A DNA stretch of 63,745 nt, filler included, from Folioceros fuciformis (lineage: Eukaryota), in NCBI GenBank assembly GCA_049999805.1. It is 5 parts of 4 records of this genome, joined end to end, with 100 filler letters (N's around TTAATTAATTAA, not from the genome) between each part and the next. Parts side by side here need not be neighbours in the genome. Positions count along the whole stretch, not along the records: positions 1 to 26,744 come from JBNGIO010006187.1; 4 more parts are not named here. One strand, 5' to 3'. Both the position numbers and the translations under genes were made by a program. Shown here piece after piece: positions 3,433-56,670 of the stretch (the first letter of the stretch is position 1; every line of letters begins with the position of its first letter). The notes below the pieces were generated by a model. It was not told the origin of the DNA. It ran no database searches and saw only the letters and a list, made by a program, of their open reading frames with translations.

Positions 3433-3915
3433 GTGAGGGGGACGAATCAGCAATCCTTGCTAAGTGGAAGGTCACCTTCCCTTATTCCCCAAATTGCTAA
3501 CTGTGTTTTGCAGTAGGAAGTGAGGGGAATGAATCCGCCTGTTGCGCGAAGTGGAAGGGGAGCTTCTTCTTCCTTTATTCCCTAAACGATTGACTGTGGC
3601 CCGTAACCGAGGTGAGGGGAACGAATCTGCCAGCTGCGCAGAGTGGAAGGGGAGCTTCTCCTTCCCTTATTCCCTGACCCTTTGATTGCGTTTTGAATCT
3701 GGTGTTGAAGAGGGTGTTTGAGACGACAAGGTGTCGAAGAATGTGTGTGAGAAGATAAGGAGTGAAGAGTGAGTGAGTAGGGAGGAGGAGGGTGAAGGAG
3801 TGAGTGTGTGAGAGGAAGACTGACTACACGTAAGCTGAGGAGAGGGGGATGAATCCGCCCGATGCGCGGAGTGGAGGGAGAGTTTCTCCTTCCCTTATTC
3901 CCTGAACCATTGGCT
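3433..3915 (+). repeat. Four imperfect direct repeats of about 70-80 bp
   Basis: Core GAGGGG..GAATC...AGTGGA.GG...CTTCC.TTATTCCC, with copies starting near 3433, 3520, 3612 and 3840. Confidence 0.8.
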
Positions 3916-4728
3916 ACGGAAGAGTGAGCTAAGAGACTAAGGAGGACCTAGGAGGATTGCTGAGATTGCCGCAAGATTATTGAGAGTGAAGAGAATTGTT
4001 GAGAGATGGCTGGACAAAGGTGAGAGATTCCTGAACGTTGGGGATGATCTTTGGAGGATTCCAAGGAGATTTCAAAGTGTTTGGGAGTGGCTGTTGGAGG
4101 TCGTCAAAGCTTGTGAAGAATAGTGAAGGACTGTGAAGGATTCGCCGGGGGATTTGTAGGCGCTACGCGAAGATTAAAGACCTTTGGGAACATGCCTGTG
4201 AGGAATAAGTGTGAACCAAAACTCTTGTGTGTTTTGCATGCGTGGAGAGTGTTGTATGTGTGTGTGTGGGGATGTGGCTGATCCGCAGGGTCTTATTACC
4301 CTAGGGTTAGTATCTGCATGTGTGAGGAGAACCTAATAAGTCTGAATCTGTGAGTCTAGAAATCCCGGGACAAAACCCCTGTGGTAGCGCATGCGCAGGA
4401 GAAATATTAGTTAGGGTTTTGGGTGGGACCCACTACCAGTCGTGGAGACCACTACCGGTCGCGGAACCATAGATCGTGGTCGTAGAGTAGGGACTGGAGT
4501 CGTAGAGTAGAATTCGCGGTAGTTAGGCTAACTGAGGGGTAGTGGTAGGGCATAGTCAGTATCGGAACTGGTAGTAGATGAGGATTGACCTAGGCAAGAG
4601 TCAGTATTAGAAGAAACCTGTGTTACTTGGCACGAATCATTCCCTTGGGATTGAATCCCATGGCTACAACAACATAGAGGGTTTGTGTGGGCCTCGTGGT
4701 GTTCTCGGACACAACATTTTACTCCACA

Positions 4729-5180
4729 GCACTAGATTAAGATACAAGAAAGTCTATGTTAGCTTACTCTTTTCTATTAGCTGGTGGAGCAGTCACGTGG
4801 TCCTGAAAGAAGCAAGCGACTGTATCTCTTTCCTCAACAGAAGCTAAATACTCAACACTAACATAGGCAGCCAAGGAGGCTATTTGTCTTAGGAGGTTAC
4901 TCTCAAACTTGGGATTGTCGCATACAGATCATACCATCATTTACTACGACAATCAGATAGCGTTGGCTTTGGCTCAGAATCCTGTGTTCCATGCACGAAT
5001 GAAGCATATCAAAGTGCATGATCATTTTGTTAGAGACGCAGTTAGCACAGGGCAGATAAAACTTGAGTATGTTTCAACAGATTCAAATGTCGCAGATATT
5101 CTTACCAAGTCGTTGCCAAGGGTTAAGCACTATTAGTTTAAGGAGGCTCTAGGTGTGCTGGAGCCCAATCATGGCTTAAC
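4729..5180 (+). pseudogene. Copia RNase H domain (pol C-terminus) with in-frame stops
   Basis: KHI and ADILTK copia motifs, collinear with the C-terminus of pol at 53932-56667. Confidence 0.9.
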
Positions 5181-5277
5181 TCTACACAAAAGTGGTTGAA
5201 GTCTATACAGTTTGTGAGGAAGCCAGTGACAACGACGGCAACAAAATTCAAATGCAACTACTACCTATTTCTTAGGT

Positions 5278-6101
5278 CTAGGACGAGTCACTCTCCTCAT
5301 CAGAAGTTGGTTGGTTCAGAAATTTCTTTGCCTTGTAGTCCGTATCTTCCTCACTGTCAGAGGTCTAGTTCTAGTCCATCCTAGCCTCCTCAAACAGCTT
5401 ATCCTTGGACACCAAAAGAACAAGACAACATGCATTTAAGGGTTTTTGTTACTAGCATCTCTTCCAACCACAACAATAGTGGGAGAATGTCAGAAGAGCT
5501 TATGCAAGACCCTTACTATAGAGTGAAATGAAGTTGCCCCCATCTCCGCCCCATCTGCACCACCTCTCACACACCATGTGAATTCCAGTAGAGGCGCATA
5601 TATAGTCTTCAGGTGTGAGAGGGTCGTTAGCTTCGTTCCCGTCAGAAATCAAGTGTCTTCTCTTCTTCAAGTCACCTACTGGGAGTGCGAGCTTTCTAGG
5701 GATGAAGTCAACAAGAACCACAACCTTGTTGTTCTCCATCTTGTCAGCACTCGTCATCATCTTCACTCTTCCCTCCATGTCGTCTAGGTAGAAGAGCTTC
5801 TTCTTGGTCACCCTCAGCTTCTGCTTCAAAAGGCTGATTTCGTGAGCTATTTTGGCCTTCTCCTTCGGATGTTTTGTGACTTCCCTCCAGTGCTATGTCA
5901 TTTGATAGAACTCCTCTCCTTCCACGGCAAACCAGGATGGACAGGACAGCAAGGAGGAGAGGAAGCTTTGCAACTACACAAGTCAATGACGACTGGAGTC
6001 CTCCTCGTCTAGCTTGATGCTGTGTCGTCTCCCTCCTCGGCACTGAGAAGATCATCAATATCAGATAAAGTGATCGGGGCGGCGGCAGGTCTCCCAGCTA
6101 T
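5278..6101 (-). pseudogene. Antisense accessory ORF of copia A (disrupted), unknown function
   Basis: Translates to PVGDLKKRRHLISDGNEANDPLTPEDYICAST...WCRWGGDGGNFISLYS...VSKDKLFEEARMD*...acidic tail, and is homologous to 53096-53786. The probable start is mutated to ATA at 6101-6099. Confidence 0.75.
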
Positions 6102-6312
6102 GTTAGTTTGCGACAATGCTGAGGCTACAAACCTGAGAGTTGGTGAAATGGACGCGTGAAGTCTCCGACTATGAAGATGTAAGCAATCCAGCTGTAGTCT
6201 GAAGTCTGTCGGTGAGGGAGTACTTCCAATTCGTGGGTTTTATGGGTGAACATGTGGTAGCTGATAAAATTTAATGTCATTTGTGCTAGTAGGTATACCC
6301 AATGAGTGGGAG

Positions 6313-6502
6313 TGTTAAGAATACCATTAGTTAGGTATTCGGTTCATTGGGTTACTTGTTCGTACTTTAGTTTATTTATTTTAGGTTTAATGAGCAGTTA
6401 TAACTACCACCCAAGACTTATGCTATACGTAATCACGTTTAGGTATTGTACTATATCGCTTTCTTGTTTATGCTGCTGCGCTCTACGGACCTGAGCCTAG
6501 CA
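6313..6502 (+). repeat. 3' LTR of copia A (about 190 bp)
   Basis: Begins TGTTAAG directly after the PPT and ends CCTAGCA. The partner LTR is not in the window, so the end is inferred. Confidence 0.6.
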
Positions 6503-6602
6503 ATCAAATCCGTTACAAAGGGCCAAATCACTGCAAACCAAGGCTGTCAAGGCTGGAGCAGCTGTAGCCACCATTGCTTCCTTGTGCAACTATTGTGGCA
6601 GT
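6503..6602 (+). pseudogene. 5' half of a zinc-knuckle (gag/nucleocapsid-like) coding relic split by copia B
   Basis: Reads KAVKAGAAVATIASLCNYCGS and joins in frame across the TSD to 13487-13606. Confidence 0.7.
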
Positions 6603-6750
6603 TGTTAGGGATGGAAACCCTAACATGACTTATACTGTAGTTAAGGAGTTAACTCAAAAGACATACAAATAGTTTTGTATTTAAGGACACATGGTCCTTC
6701 ACTAATTAATTGCTCTTTTTCTTGTGAGCACGCTTCCGCATTTATTAGCA
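6603..6750 (+). repeat. 5' LTR of copia B
   Basis: TGTTAGGG...TTATTAGCA, repeated at 13334-13481. Confidence 0.95.
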
Positions 6751-12454: not shown

Positions 12455-13120
12455 TCAGTTGTCAGTGACATGCCTGTTTAGAGGATGAAGCTCAACAGAA
12501 GTTCTAAACATAAGCAGTGCATGGCTAGGTAGTTGTCTACTTACAGGGCGGAGCTTCTTGCCGCACAGGGGGCACAACCTGCTCCTATGAGCACCAACAC
12601 CACAGTCTTTAGGAGCGTTATGTTTTGCTTTGTTTACCTCGATGTCGTCAAGAACATTGCCAGCAGCTATAGTAGCCCTTCTCACAGACTCCTCTACTAG
12701 CTCTACCTGCTGACTGACCACCTCGGCTCTTTTTGTGTCCAGTAGTTTCTCCATCTCTGCAAGCATCGTGAACACCGTCTCCACTTGATCAGCTAGTAGG
12801 GGAGTAGTGGGAGGTCCTCCAGGGGGATGGGCTCTGCGACGAGGGATGCTCACCACTTTGTCCTCCTCGTTAGTTGAGTTGGGCACAGGAGACAAGTTTG
12901 AGATGCTCGGCTTAGAAGCTCTAGAGGATTCTTCCAAATCCAGCTCTATCACTAGAACACTAGCAGAGCGGCGAGGCAGGTCGACAGGTGCTGATGCGTT
13001 GGTCATAGGCATAGGTGCCACAGCTGAAGTCTCTCTTCTGGCTGTTGAGCGCCTATGCTTATGTCCGTCTTCATAGTTGGAACTGCTCGCTCTCTTCTTG
13101 CTTGTGCGCCTGGGAGCCAT
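12455..13120 (-). CDS. Antisense accessory ORF of copia B (221 aa), unknown function
   Basis: ATG in a strong context (AACCATGG). Basic N-terminus, helical middle and CPLC motif. Lies between the pol stop and the 3' LTR. Confidence 0.6.
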   Translation of the reverse strand: MAPRRTSKKRASSSNYEDGHKHRRSTARRETSAVAPMPMTNASAPVDLPRRSASVLVIELDLEESSRASKPSISNLSPVPNSTNEEDKVVSIPRRRAHPPGGPPTTPLLADQVETVFTMLAEMEKLLDTKRAEVVSQQVELVEESVRRATIAAGNVLDDIEVNKAKHNAPKDCGVGAHRSRLCPLCGKKLRPVSRQLPSHALLMFRTSVELHPLNRHVTDN

Positions 13121-13333: not shown

Positions 13334-13481
13334 TGTTAGGGATGGAAACCCTAACATGACTTATACTACAATTAAGGAGTTAACTCAAAAGACACTCAAA
13401 CAGTTTTGAATTTAAGATTACATGGTCCTTCACTAATTAATTGCTCTTTTCCTTGTGCGCACGCTTCCGCATTTATTAGAA
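13334..13481 (+). repeat. 3' LTR of copia B
   Basis: Matches 6603-6750. Preceded by the purine tract AGTAGGAG; the terminal CA is mutated to AA. Confidence 0.95.
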
Positions 13482-22134: not shown

Positions 22135-25100
22135 TGTTAGTTAGGTTAGCTATAACAGTTGTAATTGCAACTAACTCCAAGAACAAATATGTATGGTTTT
22201 TCATAATACACACACCTCTCATAGATGCATAAGCGTGCGTCTATAAAGCTTACATGGCACAAAGCTATGGATCTTATGGCTTGTTGCCTGAAGCATGAAA
22301 CTGATGGCTTGCTATGCTTCTTGAAAACTATTGTATATTATCTTTAATCCATAAATGGCTATGGAGTTTCTTGATTTCTTTTATATATACGGTGAAGAAT
22401 AAAATGCGCACTTTGTTCATGAGGACATCTTGACGATGCCTCGCAAGGGAAATGTAGGGAGCTCTAGGATGAGGGGTTGAGCACCAAACGAGGCAGAGCC
22501 AAGGCCGNNNNNNNNNNNNNNNNNNNNNNNNNNNNNNNNNNNNNNNNNNNNNNNNNNNNNNNNNNNNNNNNNNNNNNNNNNNNNNNNNNNNNNNNNNNNN
22601 NNNNNNNAATGTAATATCTCACAATCGAAACAGGAGGAAAGAGTTAAGTTTCTCCAGCGATTTGTGAATGCATTCTCTTCAGAAGTCCTTTGCCCAATTG
22701 CTTCTCCTGCACCAAGAAGCCCAAGCACATTAGATAAATCAGTATTCTCTTCAGTTCAAGTAGAACAAGACACTAGGGTTAGTTCAAGAAATTGTTCCCT
22801 AGTGCCTACTTGTAGTGCCCATGTAGATCTTTACAATTCACTCCTCAATCCAACAAAGTAGACAAAGTTAGTTCCAAAATAGACAGAATTGAAAAAGAGA
22901 GAGATACAGGAAAGTTCTCAGTTGTTTCTTTAGAATTGGAAGTCAAGACATGCTCAAAGGAGCTAAGAGAAATCAAATAGATGCTAAGGTCTGATTCTTC
23001 TATTGGAAAATACTTATATTGAATTGTAGGGCCGATGGCGGCAGATTAAGGATCTGACCATCTACAGGAAAAAGACAGGCTAACTCCACACAATTTTGAA
23101 GCCTGGTCTTTCAGTGTGAGATGCATACTGGACGAGAAACTCATGATGGAAGTTGCAAATGGTTTAGTCCCGAAACGAGTTGTAGGGCAGGATTCCGGCT
23201 CATTACCACCTGGAGGAGTAAACAAGTTGTTATGGTCAATGAAAGATGAACTGGAATGGAATCATAAGGATGGAAAAGCAAAGTCTATTCTTGTGGAATC
23301 TATCTCTCAAGAGATGATCCCACATATAAAACTTACCAAGCATTCACACGAAATGTGGTCATTGTTGAATGACATTTATGAATCAAAGGACATGATCTCA
23401 GAAATTGCTGCGTATGAAAGAGACGGACTCTGTGGAGAGTCACGTGCCCATGTTTAGATCAGCACGAGCTAGGCTTGCTGCTTGTGAAGTAATAATTGAG
23501 GAAGGAAGGTCTGCTGTCCAGTTCCTCATGAGTCTTCCACCCAGCTATGAAACCTGGAGTTCCAGCATCCAAGCAACAGCTACTGTTACACCTGCAACAG
23601 CAACCACCCCTATAATTTCAAACCTTACAGTTCAGAAACTGGTTGGAGCCCTGTTACAAGCAGAAGCCAATCGGAAACATATGAACAAGGGGTTTGCAAG
23701 CTCTTCCCATAAGCAGAGAGATACTGCTTTATTTTCTAGCCGCGGCAGAGGACGTGGCAGACATAGGGGGTGTGGACGTGGAGGTTTTGGAAGAGGTAGA
23801 GGACAAGCGTCCAGACCTAAATCCAACTCCAGCTCACAACAGCCCAGTAGGAAGCCTGGAGTGTGCAATTACTACCACAAACCAGGTCACTGGGTTAGGG
23901 ACTATAGAGCAAAACAAAAGAATGATGCTGGAAAAGGAAAATCACAGGAAGCAAATGTCACAAGGGCTGCAGCTCCTAGATTGTGGGTAACCTACTTGAT
24001 GACGGTGACCAAAGGTAGAAATCAGTGGTTCTTAGACATTGGTTCTTCTAACCACATGTGCTTGTCTAAGAAGCCTTTTTCAGAATATGTTGTTGCCCCT
24101 GTCAACATGCTTGGTGCTCGGAGATAACTCCCATATACCCATTAGAGGGATGGGTTCAGTGGTAGTCACCCTAAATAATGGGAAGACTTAGGAGTTAGAG
24201 AATGTTCTTTATGTTCCTACACTCAAGAAGAACCTAGTCAATACAATGGCATTAGGTCAAACAGGACAATATAGAATCATGTTTGAAGGTTTAGAGTGCG
24301 TCATCACTAGCTTGATCTCACCTCCAGAAGTTATAGCTAGAGGCACTCCGTTGTATAACCTGTACCTCCTTGATTTCACTCTAGATGCTCAGTCTCAGTC
24401 AGTGCAAGTAGCATAGTCAGTTGTTGATAAAACACAAATTGCTTTTAAATGGCACTGTAGACTTGGACACCCTAACATAAAAGCAATGAGGCGTTTGCTA
24501 AAGGAGAAGATGGTTACCGGTGTTTCTAAATCAGATTTGTCAGACCTTGAGCTTTGTGTTGCCTGTGTTCATGGGAAACATTTCAAGTCACATTTTGGAT
24601 CTAGTAAACCATGGAAAGCAACATAAGTGTTAGATCTTGTTCATACAGATATCTGTGGACCATTGTCAATACCTAGTTGGGGTGGTGCTAGGTATTTTGT
24701 TGTGTTCGAAGATGATAAGACTCATTTTATTGTTACAGAGTTGTTGAAGCACAAAAGTGATGTTTTTGATAGCTTCAAACGCTACCTGGCTTATGCCGAA
24801 CGGCAAACTGGCTACAAGTTGAAGTGAATTCGATCTGATAATGGGAAGGAATATATGTCCACAGCATTTTAAGAGTTTTGTCAGGAGTGTGGAATCATTA
24901 GGCAACTCACCATTCCCTATCATTCAAACATGAATGGAAGAGCAGAACGTAGACACAGAACTATACAAGATGCTGCAAGAGCTCTACTGTTTTAGGGGAG
25001 GCTACCTACTTGCTTCTGGGCTGAGGCAATACAGGTGGCCACGTATCTACAGAATCGAACAGCTTTTTCCACCCTTCCGCAATCTACACCATTTGAGTCA

Positions 25101-25175
25101 TGGATAGGTGTGAAGCCAAATACTTCTCACCTACGAGTGTTTAGTAGTATTGCCTTAGCACACATCCCAGATAAG
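22135..25175 (+). mobile_element. Ty1/copia element C, 5' part (putative LTR, gag, PR, integrase), disrupted
   Basis: Putative LTR TGTTAG...CTTACA at 22135-22254 with a degenerate PBS TGGCACAAAGC. Gag from about 23035; knuckle CNYYHKPGHWVRDY; protease WFLDIGSSNHM; integrase VHTDICGP...RSDNGKEY...NGRAERRHRT, closely similar to element D. Confidence 0.88.
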
Positions 25176-26413
25176 TGAAGGAACGCTCAAGGAGCTACAT
25201 GGTGAAGGAGAGGAGAGGAGAAAGAGAGGTCACACATACAAGGGAGCTCAAGGGGGTATTTATACCCCCTCTAGAAGAGCTCCCTAGGAAGCTTCACAAG
25301 AAGCCTACAAGAAGCCTACAGGAAGCTGCACAAGAAGCTTCCTAGAGATTAGCTTAAGCTAATCTAAACTAATGATACTTAACTAGACACTAATCTTAGA
25401 CTAAACACATTAGTCTAGGCACATTGGGCTTTAATAACCCTACAACCGCCCCCTTAAAGGCCAATTTACCTTGATAGGAGAGTGGTCTACCTCATGCCCA
25501 TGAGTGTCCGAGCTTGTGCGAATTGCTCCGAAGAGAGCCCCTTGGTGAGAACATCTGCAGGGTTCTGACTGGTGTGAACTTTGACAAGTTGTACTCTCTT
25601 GTCTTCCAACACCTCTCAAATGAAGTGATACTTCACTTCCACATGTTTGGTCTTCGCATGAAAACACTGGATTCTTTGCCAATTGAATAGCACTCTGGCT
25701 ATCACAATGCAACACTGGCAGCTCAACCTTGATCCCTAAATCGCCCACTAGATGAGCAAGCCACATGGCTTCCTTGCATGCTTCAGTCGCTGCAACATAC
25801 TTGGCCTCTGTGGTAGATATCGTTATGCATGATTGCAAACGAGATCGCCATGAGACTACCTCTCTTATGCACATGAAGACGTAACCTGATGTGGACCTCC
25901 TTTTGTCCATATCCCCTGCATAACCAGCATCCGTATATCCCACGACAGATGCATCTTCACTACCAAAACATAAGCACCAAGCTTTCGTACCATTCAAGTA
26001 CCTCATAACTCCTTTCACTGCCTCCCGATGCTTCCTGCCAGGGTTTGACATAAACCTGCTAACCACTCCCATTGCAAAGGCAATGTCAGGACGTGTAGCA
26101 ATCATTGCATACATCAAACTCCCTACAGCTGATGAGTATGGAACCTTCTCCATTTCAGCTTTGTCCTCCACAGAGCTTGGGCAATCCTTGCTCGACAGTT
26201 TGAAATATGGAGGCAACGGAGTACTTAATACCTTCCCCTTCTCCATATTGAAACGTTGAAGCACCTTGTTAATGTATTCAGTCTGAGACAAGTACAACAA
26301 ATGCTTCTGTCTGTCTCGACGAATACGTATGCTAAGAATATGGCTTGCCTCTCCCAAGTCTGTCATGTCAAAGCGACCATTCAACTTTGACTTCAACGTT
26401 GAAATCTCATAAC
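25176..26413 (-). mobile_element. Copia element C2, 3' part (RT/RNase H, PPT, 269-bp 3' LTR), nested in element C
   Basis: ORF 25440-26396 has MTDLGE, PYSSAVGSLMYAM, GYTDA and CDSQSAI. PPT AAGGGGGCGGT is followed by an LTR TGTAGGG...CTTCA (25444-25176), which interrupts the integrase of C after AHIPDK. Confidence 0.9.
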
Positions 26414-53019: not shown

Positions 53020-53095
53020 TCTGTCTCGTACCACTCAGAAGCTCGGCCTCTACAGCAGAGACTGTCACCTGTTCTGAGCAGCTCAACACCACACC

Positions 53096-53786
53096 ATGTC
53101 GGGTTCCAGGGCTGAGCCTATTGATCTCTCAGAGGCGGCGCCTGAGGTGCAGCCAGTCCTGGACGAGCTGCAGAAGGTGCTAGATGCCTTAAACGCGACG
53201 CCTCTTCCTCCAAAGGCGAAGGAGTCCCCTGGTATGGCTGTTCTCCGTCGCAAGCTTTGCAAGTGCCCTGATGACGCTTCTCTCTATCCGAGGGACTGGA
53301 CGCTGTTGTGATTCCGGAAAAATATCAGCCCAGAGTCTTCACCGTGCCGGTTGGACACCTACACAAGATGCGACAGGTAGTGACAGATGGGGATGGAGCT
53401 AACAACCCTTTGACGCCTGAGGTCTACATCTGCCCTACTACTCTGTCAATACATGGTGACCATGTATTGACAGAGTTGGTGGCACTGGGGCGGACAAGAC
53501 GGCAACTTCATATCATACTACAGTGAGTCCACAGCACAAGTCTGATCTACTGCACACAATTATTGTGGTTTGACCTGCTGTAGGTACTCACTCTAAAAAC
53601 TGTTCAGTGTCCAAGGAAAGGATGGCTGAAGAGGCAGGCATTGACTGGATGGATGAGAATGAAGACACATCTGACGACAACGACCCTGACTTTGATCCTA
53701 ACTTTGTAGGGTTCCAGGGAATGAACAGGGAGGGGAAGTCAAGAGCCCTATCCCCCTCTTCCTCTGATGACTCTGAAGAGGTCTAA
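53096..53786 (+). pseudogene. Antisense accessory ORF of copia D (frameshifted in this assembly), unknown function
   Basis: Pieces MSGSRAEPIDL...KAKESPGMAVLRRKL / PVGHLHKMRQVVTDGDGANNPLTPEVYICPTT / WWHWGGQDGNFISYYS / VSKERMAEEAGIDW + acidic tail. Homologous to 5278-6101. Confidence 0.75.
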
Positions 53787-53931
53787 ACATCCCTGGTGAC
53801 CATCTCACAGGTAGGAAGTTAGTGTCAGATGAATTCCAGCATGCCTAACAGCTGACTCCTCAGACAGACTCTCTTACTTGCTGTGGGACACGTTTGTTAT
53901 GTGGAGGGGTCCTAGGACACCCAAGGACTCC

Positions 53932-56667
53932 TTAAACTGATAGTGGCTTCATCCTAGGTAAGGCTTTCGTAAGCAAATCCGTAGCATTAGCATCAGTCAG
54001 CACATACTCAAGCTTGACTTGTTTTGTCTCAACAGCATGTCGAATGAAGTGATGATGGACTTCAACATGCTTAGTTCTGGCATGAAATACTGGATTTTGT
54101 GCCAAAGCTAACGCTGATTGATTGTCGCAATATATAGTTGTTGGTTCTCGCTGTGGTTGTCCAAGATCTGATAACAATCTTCTCAGCCAAATTGCCTCTT
54201 TAGACGCCTGTGTCAAGGCAGAGTATTCTGCCTCTGTTGACGAGAGAGACACAGTCGTTTGTTTCTTTGAGGACCATGTAACTGCTCCACCAGCTAGAAG
54301 AAAAGCATATGCTGAAACGGACTTCCTCGTATCAGGATCTGCTGCCCAGTCAGCATCGCAGTATCCTATCAGCATAAGCTCCTCTCCTTCAAAGGCTTGT
54401 TTGGAATAATGTATACCATGATCACTCGTGCCCTTCAAATATCGAAGAATCCGCTTAACAGCTGACCAGTGTACCTTTCCTGGATTCTTGAGGTGCTGAG
54501 AGACCATGCTCACTGGGAGAGCTACATCAGGCCTACTATTGTTTGAGTAGTATATGAGTGAACCTACTGCTTGGGCATAGGGAACTGCCTCCATCTCCTG
54601 CTTATCAGCATCAGTCGCTGGAGACTGTGAGCTGGACAACTTGCAACCAGTTTCAAGAGGTGTAATTGCTACCTTAGCTTCCTCGAGCTTATACTTGAAT
54701 AACATATCCAGAATATACTTCTGCTGATGTATTACCAATGTGCCACTTGCAGAGTCACGAGACAGCTGAGTGCCGAGGCAGTAGGACAACTCCCCGACAT
54801 CTACCATTTCAAAGCGACCAGACAGCAGACCTTTAACTCTGGTAATCCCCTCAAGATCAGTGCCTAGGAGTATGCAATCATCTACGTACAAAGCTAGTAT
54901 AACAAAACTTGTTTTGTCTTGCAGGAGATAAACATTCGAATCTGCTGAGCTTTTAAGAAAACCAAGTCCTAGCAGGAACTCATCTATGACTTCATACCAA
55001 GCACGGGGACTCTGCTTCAAGCCGTAGATAGTTTTGAGTAACTGACAGACCCAGTCCTCTTTCCCTTCTACCTCGTACCCCTCAGGCTGTTGCATAAAGA
55101 TATCTTCCTCTAATTTCCCATGGAGAAAGGCGGTCTTAACATCCATCTGGTGGATGAAAAGGCCAAAAAACGCAGACATGGAGACGAGGACACGAAGAGA
55201 CTGAGACTTAACTACAGGGCTAAAAGTATCATGGTAGTCTAAGCCAGGGACTTGAGAGAACCCACGAGCTACTAACCTGGCCTTGTATCTGGAGATAGAG
55301 CCATCCGCCTTATATTTCAACTTGAACACCCACTTCGAGGTGACAATTTTCCTCCCCTGAGGCGGAGGAACTATCTTCCAGGTTTGATTGTGGATCAATG
55401 AGTCATATTCAGACTGGATTGCTGCTTTCCAAAGCTTGGCCTCTGGCCCACTAACAGCCTCTTGATAACTTTGTGGTTCACAACCAGGTTCGAAAGCAAG
55501 GTTAAGGAAATCAACCACCACTCCATCGGCAGCTGAACCAGGAGGTCGAGGGACTTTCCGAAAGTCTTCACTGCTGTAAGGTGCCTCCTTCCAATTCTCA
55601 CGTGTTCTGTGCACTCGAGTAGACCGCCGAAGAGGGGCAGGCTGGGGAATGGGCATCACATATTCGACTGGATCATCTTCGAACCGCTCAGGATGTTGAA
55701 TAACAGGCTGTGGAATAACTGGGGCTGGAGGTTCATCATCGTCTGACTGTACAAGTACAGGAAGCAAGACATCATCGAGATCAGCAGGTGGATCATCTAG
55801 ATGTGTATCATCAGACTGGTCAGGGGGATCACCAAGGGCTTGTGGGGGAGGCACCACAGGTAAAGGGTCAGGAGTTGTAAAGGAAGGATCTGAGTCAGGA
55901 AACGTGGCAGATTCAAAAGCACTAACATCATCCTCTGGCTCGACAGGTTGGTTATCAACTTCTACAACATCAGGATCTGTGAAATCATCAAAGGAATGAG
56001 CTGGCGGCTTAAGAACAGAACGCTCATCGAAAACAACTGTCCTGGCATGTGAAACCTTTTGAGTAACAGGGTCGAACAACTTATAACCATGTATACCCGC
56101 TGTATAGCCAATGAAGATGTGACGTTTCGACTTATAGTCAAACTTGTGGCGAAGCTGATCAGGCACATGAGCATAGGCGGTACTCCCAAACACTCGGAGA
56201 TGTGCCAGATCTGGTTTACACCCAGTCCACACTTCAAAGGGTGTACAGCTGCGAAGAGATGAAACAGCAGAACGATTTTGTAGGTATGTCGCAACTTGCA
56301 CTGCTTCCGCCCAGAATTTAACTGACAGTCTTCCTTGATACAAAAGAGAGCGAGCAGCATCCTGGATGGTCCTGTGACGACGCTCCGCACGTCCATTCAT
56401 ATCAGAGTGATACGGAATGGTGAGTTGTCTAGTTATCCTCCTCTCCTGACAATATTCCTGGAAGGCTAGGGATAAGTACTCCTTGCCATTGTCACTTCTG
56501 ATACAATTCAGCTGATGTCCAGTCTGCCTTTCTGCGTATGCAAGGTACCGCTTGAAGCTGGAGAATACTTCACTCTTGTGGCGTAAAAGCTCTGTCACTG
56601 TGAAGTGTGACTTATCGTCCTCGAACACAACAAAATATTTAGCGCCTCCCCAGGAGGGTACCGACAT
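53932..56667 (-). mobile_element. Ty1/copia element D pol (integrase-RT-RNase H), open for 911 codons, 5'-truncated
   Basis: RSDNGKEY, NGRAERRHRT, QMDVKTAFLHG, YGLKQSPRAW, LYVDD, YCDADW, KHVEV. There is a frameshift in the last few codons. Confidence 0.95.
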
Positions 56668-56670
56668 TGG

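Follow-up and report, generated by a model that had tools for sequence, protein, structure and literature searches.

Antisense open reading frames (ORFs) located between pol and the 3' LTR have been described in the plant retrotransposons Grande, RIRE2, Retand, and PvRetro13 (PMC7264820). PvRetro13 and its 14 sister families belong to Ty3/gypsy (PMC4093653, Table 2), and the Retand ORFs carry TRP28 (PMC11963269). For copia, a survey reported 582 elements with extra ORFs of at least 250 codons, in 45 groups, and the one that its text highlights is the SIRE ORF, which is in sense (Neumann et al. 2019, PMC6317226). In line with these sources, the first-pass annotation of the DNA studied here had placed 3' antisense ORFs mainly in gypsy lineages and the extra ORF of SIRE in sense, in agreement with the relevant passages of PMC7264820, PMC4093653, and PMC6317226. 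On splicing, the pertinent part of the 2020 review only asks for spliced antisense transcripts to be looked for (PMC7264820). An antisense ORF in a copia element was not found described in the literature searched; earlier catalogues may hold one, as Neumann et al. 2019 give the per-group orientations in supplements.

The window analyzed here is the whole stretch of 63,745 nucleotides (filler included) from Folioceros fuciformis, a chain of eukaryotic, plant-like contigs with runs of N between them and with many Ty1/copia fragments. Two related copia elements in the window, copies A and D, were claimed in the first-pass annotation to encode a protein opposite to and behind pol, and this arrangement was recovered: in A, pol is on the plus strand and the ORF on the minus strand, and in D, pol is on the minus strand and the ORF on the plus strand. 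From these copies, we propose that a Ty1/copia lineage probably carries a small two-exon antisense gene between pol and the polypurine tract and 3' LTR, which would be an element-borne, spliced accessory gene and the copia variant of the gypsy antisense ORFs. The features of the two copies are as follows.

4729-5136, plus strand: copy A, 3' end of pol (C-terminal RNase H part), 5'-truncated at 4728/4729, with three in-frame stops; stop codon at 5134-5136
5137-5277, no strand: copy A, spacer of 141 nt from the pol stop to the antisense-gene stop, the two genes being convergent (the D counterpart is 145 nt)
5278-6101, minus strand: copy A, antisense gene, opposite to and behind copia pol
5278-5411, minus strand: copy A, exon 2, SKDKLFEEARMD plus an acidic Ser/Asp/Glu tail; terminal stop at 5278-5280
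5412-5516, minus strand: copy A, counterpart of the intron, 105 nt, with donor GTAAGG from 5516 and an acceptor dinucleotide that is not AG
5517-6101, minus strand: copy A, exon 1, with 124 codons open (5874-5503, running 4 codons beyond the donor)
6303-6330, plus strand: copy A, candidate polypurine tract (6303-6314) and candidate 3' LTR start (TGTTAAG from 6315); element B has a similar junction
53096-53522, plus strand: copy D, exon 1, with ATG at 53096 and two frameshifts, at ~53262-53300 and ~53445-53476
53523-53607, plus strand: copy D, predicted intron, 85 nt, GTGAGT..CAG; once it is cut out, ..NFISYY reads in frame into SKERMAEEAGIDW.. and through to the stop
53608-53786, plus strand: copy D, exon 2, with an acidic tail (18 D+E among 58 residues) ending ..SSSDDSEEV; stop at 53784-53786
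53932-56667, minus strand: copy D, pol, with 911 of 911 visible codons open up to the contig end; rve, SH3_retrovirus, and RVT_2

Judged by domain order, both host elements are Ty1/copia: the D pol has an integrase upstream of an RVT_2-type reverse transcriptase (rve at residues 2-88, SH3_retrovirus at 148-217, RVT_2 at 427-672 with an E value of 2e-67), and the A pol is akin to it. The C-terminal 133 aa of the A pol are 71% identical to the D pol (tblastn), and their translation contains 3 in-frame stops in 133 codons. Over 130 codons, the two pol sequences differ with pN 0.154 and pS 0.768, and synonymous sites are saturated. A and D are old copies, only distantly related to each other, of a copia retrotransposon of plant type. 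The contig that holds copy D is 3.65 kb long (53020-56670).

A very high-copy repeat seen at 4600-4728 of the window, with a summed contig depth in the thousands vs tens elsewhere, stops exactly at 4728, where the A pol fragment starts. Past 4728, many contigs continue unlike the window, and the repeat probably represents one end of a further element that inserted into A. Farther upstream of copy A, at 3517-3916, lie three copies of an 80-nt unit, with 81 to 83% identity to the first and spacings of 92 and 228 nt. Elsewhere in the window, a third relative of D is represented by an integrase N terminus at 24663-25184 (plus strand; 74% identity over 174 aa), which is adjoined by a reversed, more distant copia pol fragment at 25535-26405 (minus strand; 42% over 269 aa). 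This arrangement looks like a nested insertion.

Similarity between the antisense regions of A and D was evident at the protein level. In a tblastx comparison, A and D matched in three collinear segments, with identities of 50% over 46 aa, 43% over 37 aa, and 54% over 13 aa (joint E value, 3.8e-20), and blastn gave 66% identity over 193 nt. When the 53-aa core of D was searched against the whole window with tblastn, A was the sole match (E value, 2.8e-13). All four pairs of blocks quoted in the first-pass annotation were present where it had placed them, in frames opposite to pol, and its boundaries of 5278 and 6101 proved exact, the former being the end of the terminal stop codon at 5278-5280 and the latter the start of the codon (6101-6099) homologous to the ATG of D. 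The N-terminal pair, KAK..LKQKL in A and KAK..LRRKL in D, fared less well: both strings exist, but the match is statistically unsupported, with the N-terminal 71 aa of D finding nothing in A by tblastn at an E value of 10 or less. A further resemblance near the start, P-I-[TD]-L-S-[DE], is visible and not significant. Gapped global alignments of the spacer, intron, and N terminus gave ~70% identity everywhere and were discarded as uninformative.

Both of the window copies in which the interval from pol to the 3' side can be seen (2 of 2) contain the antisense block. The claim that the region belongs to the element was upheld: its location and direction with respect to pol agree between two copies that are saturated at synonymous sites of pol, the antisense stop and the pol stop lie 141 nt (A) and 145 nt (D) apart, and further copies occur in contigs of the same organism.

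The pattern of substitutions between A and D was of a coding type. Differences at codon positions 1, 2, and 3 numbered 38, 22, and 50 across the three hits, which total 96 codons (chi-square P value, 0.0046). On the 73 clearly exonic codons, the Nei-Gojobori method gave pN 0.278, pS 0.596, and a dN/dS of 0.29 in the antisense frame, compared with 0.94, 2.31, 1.14, 0.47, and 2.38 for the other five frames over the same columns. The frame at 0.47 is the reverse frame with a common wobble position, and stop codons interrupt it in A and D alike. When the columns were shuffled 2000 times as a control, 3 shuffles reached the observed pN/pS of 0.466, a result that stays below 0.01 after a six-fold correction and that pertains to one sequence pair, with the blocks picked for aligning and the frame for best score. 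The protein-level constraint postulated in the first-pass annotation was thereby borne out, with a dN/dS that is not near 1. The exon sequence appears to have diverged under such constraint, and the coding interpretation is reasonably supported.

Two other accounts of this conservation dispense with a protein. The first holds that there is no gene, that conservation acts at the DNA level on a cis-acting 3' untranslated region serving packaging, priming, or transcript end formation, and that the frames and splice sites arose by chance. Reverse frames do also score (35.9 and 34.1 bits); however, the best of them carries stops in both copies. Neither the periodicity (P value, ~0.005) nor the shuffle result is expected under this account, and A retains 124 open codons on the antisense strand vs 3 stops in 133 codons of its pol. 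We regard it as very improbable. The second assigns the function to transcription running against the element RNA at its 3' end, acting through double-stranded RNA, siRNA, or copy-number control as in Ty1, and treats the frame as incidental. The convergent layout would make the transcript overlap the 3' end of pol, both frames in the window are broken, and retrotransposon antisense promoters and non-coding antisense RNAs are known (PMC7264820). This account predicts neither three-base periodicity nor the strongest conservation at the second codon position, and we consider it equally improbable.

Within the constrained region, several features pointed to an intron, a genuine addition to the first-pass annotation, where it had been missed. 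A and D have a consensus donor at one and the same codon, GTAAGG in the former and GTGAGT in the latter, right after the conserved ..GNFIS[LY]Y, and the reading frame runs into a stop 4 codons (A) or 6 codons (D) beyond the donor. Amino acid similarity restarts at ..SK[DE][KR].., at a distance from the donor of 105 nt (A) or 85 nt (D), a difference in length that is not a multiple of three. The D interval ends in CTGTTCAG, and cutting out 53523-53607 joins exon 1 to exon 2, which lies in another frame. The frame is kept open by 7 of the 21 GT..AG pairs in the D interval, so frame restoration alone is weak evidence, and the chance explanation without a gene gains from this rate of one in three. 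The intron model is favored because of the shared donor, the stops after the donor in both copies, the variable length of the interval, and the similarity that resumes exactly at the acceptor.

The first half of the intron (5463-5516 in A, 53523-53573 in D) is still alignable between the two copies and has a common motif, ATT.TTGTGGTT, although faster divergence is expected of an intron. The alignable half could hold a branch site, an element with a regulatory role, or a signal that the sense RNA uses in cis. It also counts in favor of the cis-acting reading of the locus, the blastn match extending ~50 nt beyond the donor.

Both window copies of the antisense gene are dead versions, and an intact copy was not encountered. 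In A, the start is lost (codon 6101-6099, homologous to the D ATG at 53096, is not a start codon), the N-terminal part of exon 1 (5875-6101, ~75 codons) is broken by stops and frame changes, the acceptor is lost, and exon 2 has premature in-frame stops at 5371-5373 and 5365-5367. In D, the ATG, the intron, and the tail are intact, and exon 1 carries the two frameshifts, with the blocks that align to A in frames 1, 3, and 1; its contig stops 76 nt past the ATG. The possibility that the frame changes in D are further introns was rejected, as A is continuous in one frame across both places. Two frameshifts fall within the 606 nt of antisense coding sequence of D vs none in 2736 nt of open pol, and the probability that two random indels both hit the antisense gene is 0.033, which suggests that the D copy could already do without it. 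An open pol beside a frameshifted antisense gene means that the gene is dispensable in cis for the D copy, and D probably descends from a master copy without further need for the antisense gene in cis.

The same observations bear on a third account, in which the region is a passenger: a piece of a host gene, intron included, would have been captured once in reverse by the ancestor of A and D, and would do the element no service, with the constraint stemming from its past in the host or from the choice of blocks. In favor of this account, the presence of an intron suggests a cellular, genomic source, LTR retrotransposons are documented to carry captured gene fragments (PMC7264820), and both copies are broken, with D pairing an open pol with a frameshifted antisense gene. 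However, the substitutions counted here postdate the split of A and D and occurred inside elements, and yet dN/dS is 0.29. A and D have also retained the positions of start and stop and the distance to pol. Taken with the database searches described below, these points leave a passenger origin unlikely, if somewhat less so than the two accounts that dispense with a protein.

Further copies were found in contigs of the same organism. Contigs from two runs of one sample, X1 and X2, which are not mutually independent, contained the locus itself at 0 differences plus other copies at 80 to 90% identity. One of these (X2 record 10, the same as X1 record 2) is unbroken from the end of pol to 5805, with 162 differences over 1077 nt; records 6/13 and 7/14 cover 5605-6517 at ~90%, and records 4/11 are a deletion derivative. 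At position 6099, within the codon matching the D ATG, one related contig departs from the A sequence. Among the indels listed for 4729-6101, those in pol are of 3 and 6 nt, the intron has three of 1 nt (at 5439, 5443, and 5447), and exon 1 has CC plus A, summing to 3 nt; there are 9 further indels and 411 further substitutions besides. That the indels fall in the intron or come to multiples of three, among those listed, is suggestive, and such a pattern is not predicted if the frame is incidental to an antisense RNA. In the one run that is possibly RNA, a single contig aligned, over 39 nt of pol. In a third run of the same sample, X3, C>T and G>A made up 181 of the 216 listed differing places at 4600-6700. 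A cytosine-conversion (bisulfite-type) library would give this pattern, which makes the run unusable for sequence variants.

Searches for relatives of the predicted protein agreed with the first-pass annotation, where the protein had not been recognised: no known family matched in Pfam, phmmer, or PDB searches. Four pieces of A and D gave only sub-threshold noise in Pfam (best E value, 0.033, to nSTAND3), and none of the 4 matched PF04195 (Transposase_28, the TRP28 of Retand) at an E value of 10 or less. The best E value against PDB sequences was 1.1, the ESM Atlas yielded no usable match, and a word-indexed protein search with the 124 aa of A returned 1 candidate and no scored match. Against 1.84 billion representative proteins, phmmer reported 2 matches at an E value of 0.001 or less, both to repetitive proteins and to the N-terminal helix only (query residues 6-64), and these were set aside as composition matches. 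No host-type homologue was seen among these proteins, which speaks against the passenger origin. The structure prediction that the first-pass annotation had recommended was unproductive: from a single sequence, AlphaFold2 returned a mean pLDDT of 39.7, an unusable model, and no fold. A zinc-binding motif was considered and rejected, as the Cys residues of VCERWCRW in A are not kept in D (WWHW).

A single-protein query of metagenome contigs gave 8 loci with matches of 26 to 40 residues, which were taken as pattern-seeded chance. Among the 3 of 8 loci examined, L001 and L008 hold bacterial-type genes, and the match in L001 and L005 is the exact word VCERWCRW. A short stretch, nearly identical between L001 (4336-4434) and L005 (1513-1593), which are reported as different metagenome records, translates in one frame as ..SLTHTSIIQFCVGT.AVCERWCRW.., with stops nearby in L001. 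This stretch looks like a conserved bacterial non-coding element unrelated to the antisense gene. Viral contigs gave 7 pattern matches, none of them confirmed.

Next to copy A lies element B, a member of a different copia family with its own antisense ORF.

6603-6748 and 13334-13479, strand not given: element B, LTRs of 146 nt; different copia family, with RVT_2
12455-13120, minus strand: element B, antisense ORF, intact, 221 aa from an ATG, 170 nt behind the pol stop and 213 nt before the 3' LTR

The pol of element B is ~41 to 51% identical to that of D. Its antisense ORF has a basic N terminus (PRRTSKKR) and a predicted helical middle, and the 221-aa sequence had no Pfam match and no homologue in the word-indexed search. 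A direct comparison with the A/D gene by hhalign and BLASTP detected no relation (probability, 0.5%; E value, 0.12). Altogether, the window shows 4 intervals between pol and LTR, and 3 of them, those of A, D, and B, contain an antisense ORF. The remaining one, after the pol fragment at 25535-26405, is at most ~350 nt long, which leaves no room for an antisense gene.

Element B also provides a parallel for the candidate 3' end of copy A. Its junction (..GGAG/TGTTAGGG at 13334) is like that proposed for A, and the candidate junction of A at 6303/6315 is 213 nt from the start position, equal to the distance in element B. Summed contig depth approximately doubles from the bin at 6233-6303 to the bin at 6304-6374. 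Only 288 nt separate the candidate LTR start of A (6315) from the 5' LTR of B (6603). Over 6517-6602, the last 85 nt before that LTR, summed contig depth is as high as in the B LTR, and this stretch does not match the sequence preceding the B 3' LTR.

On the preferred reading, an element-borne and spliced accessory gene, transcription would start from the gene's own promoter, sited either within the 3' LTR or in the ~210 nt separating that LTR from the gene start, and would run towards pol. The antisense mRNA would be spliced, and only this transcript could splice the intron. Genomic RNA would read the intron as its reverse complement, and the intron would survive reverse transcription; given the known retrotransposition cycle, it may persist in a retroelement because it is not removable from genomic RNA in this orientation. 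The product would be ~200 to 250 aa long, with an acidic N terminus, a basic helix (KEKAK..LKQKLRVTKKK), a core of ~70 aa, and an acidic, serine-rich tail. The core would contain Trp, Gly, and Cys residues (PVG.L.K.R....DG..AN.PLTPE.YIC ... W..WGG..GNFIS.Y). In A, the 124-aa core region is basic (23 K+R vs 16 D+E), and the tail has 13 D+E and 10 S+T among 43 positions. From this composition one might guess at a trans-acting accessory factor, nuclear or associated with nucleic acid or chromatin, that tunes expression or copy number of the element, a role we hold to be doubtful.

Collectively, the three rival accounts each appear to fail on one point, a coding-type substitution pattern that arose after the split of A and D, in data that consist of two copies. 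A wider reading is possible, and we offer it tentatively, with clearly less confidence than the existence of the gene itself. The whole plant Ty1/copia lineage may encode a spliced antisense accessory protein of unseen fold, driven from the 3' end, a counterpart of HBZ, with its intron kept as only the antisense transcript splices; two-exon antisense genes, that of element B included, could be general in the copia elements of this group of plants and overlooked by long-ORF screens.

Antisense genes between pol and the 3' LTR are recurrent and unexplained in plant gypsy elements, and a constrained copia case would show that the strategy arose in both superfamilies. The intron would serve as a marker that tells antisense mRNA from genomic RNA, and junction reads would make expression and function directly testable. 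Screens that demand a long, unbroken ORF pass over genes of this type. Until a copy that is both intact and expressed comes to light, the practical value is modest.

Among known systems, the A/D gene is closest to the antisense 3' ORFs of plant Ty3/gypsy elements (aORF-3R or eORF-3'R: Grande gene23, RIRE2, Retand TRP28, and PvRetro13 ORF2), which it resembles in probable position, opposite orientation, and a presumed promoter of its own, and also in being found in diverged members of a lineage and in having no known function, as far as the relevant sections of these sources describe them (PMC7264820, PMC11963269, PMC4093653). Like an aORF-3R, it runs opposite to gag-pol in both A and D. It lies directly behind pol, and in A it would lie before the candidate 3' LTR; the D contig ends 76 nt past the ATG. 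Unlike the gypsy ORFs, it belongs to a Ty1/copia element, and it is small, ~0.8 kb in a pol-to-LTR interval of ~1.2 kb vs 2.9 to 6.6 kb in Retand. It also has a predicted intron, a word absent from the available text of the Retand paper (PMC11963269). Its longest open stretch, 124 codons in A, is below the 250 codons used by Neumann et al. (2019), and a two-exon gene with 124 to 200 open codons would therefore escape that screen as its text describes it (PMC6317226).

The env-like ORF of SIRE/Sirevirus elements is alike in being an extra ORF downstream of pol in copia, with very heterogeneous sequences and no known function (PMC6317226). The SIRE ORF is in sense (eORF-3'F), whereas the A/D gene is antisense and predicted to be spliced. 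In working principle, the nearest analogue is HBZ of HTLV-1, which, with other deltaretroviral antisense genes, would be alike in outline: a minus-strand protein gene situated close to the 3' LTR, transcribed from the 3' end, and giving a spliced mRNA. An antisense promoter is present in the HTLV 3' LTR (PMC7264820). The A/D gene differs from HBZ in showing no sequence relation and no bZIP or other domain, in having a plant-type copia host, and in being known from DNA alone. Finally, the antisense transcripts of Ty1 are non-coding and lie over gag. Copy-number control in Ty1 is alike in that antisense transcription of a copia-type element regulates the element itself (PMC11624286); in contrast, the A/D unit lies 3' of pol and bears a coding-type constraint.
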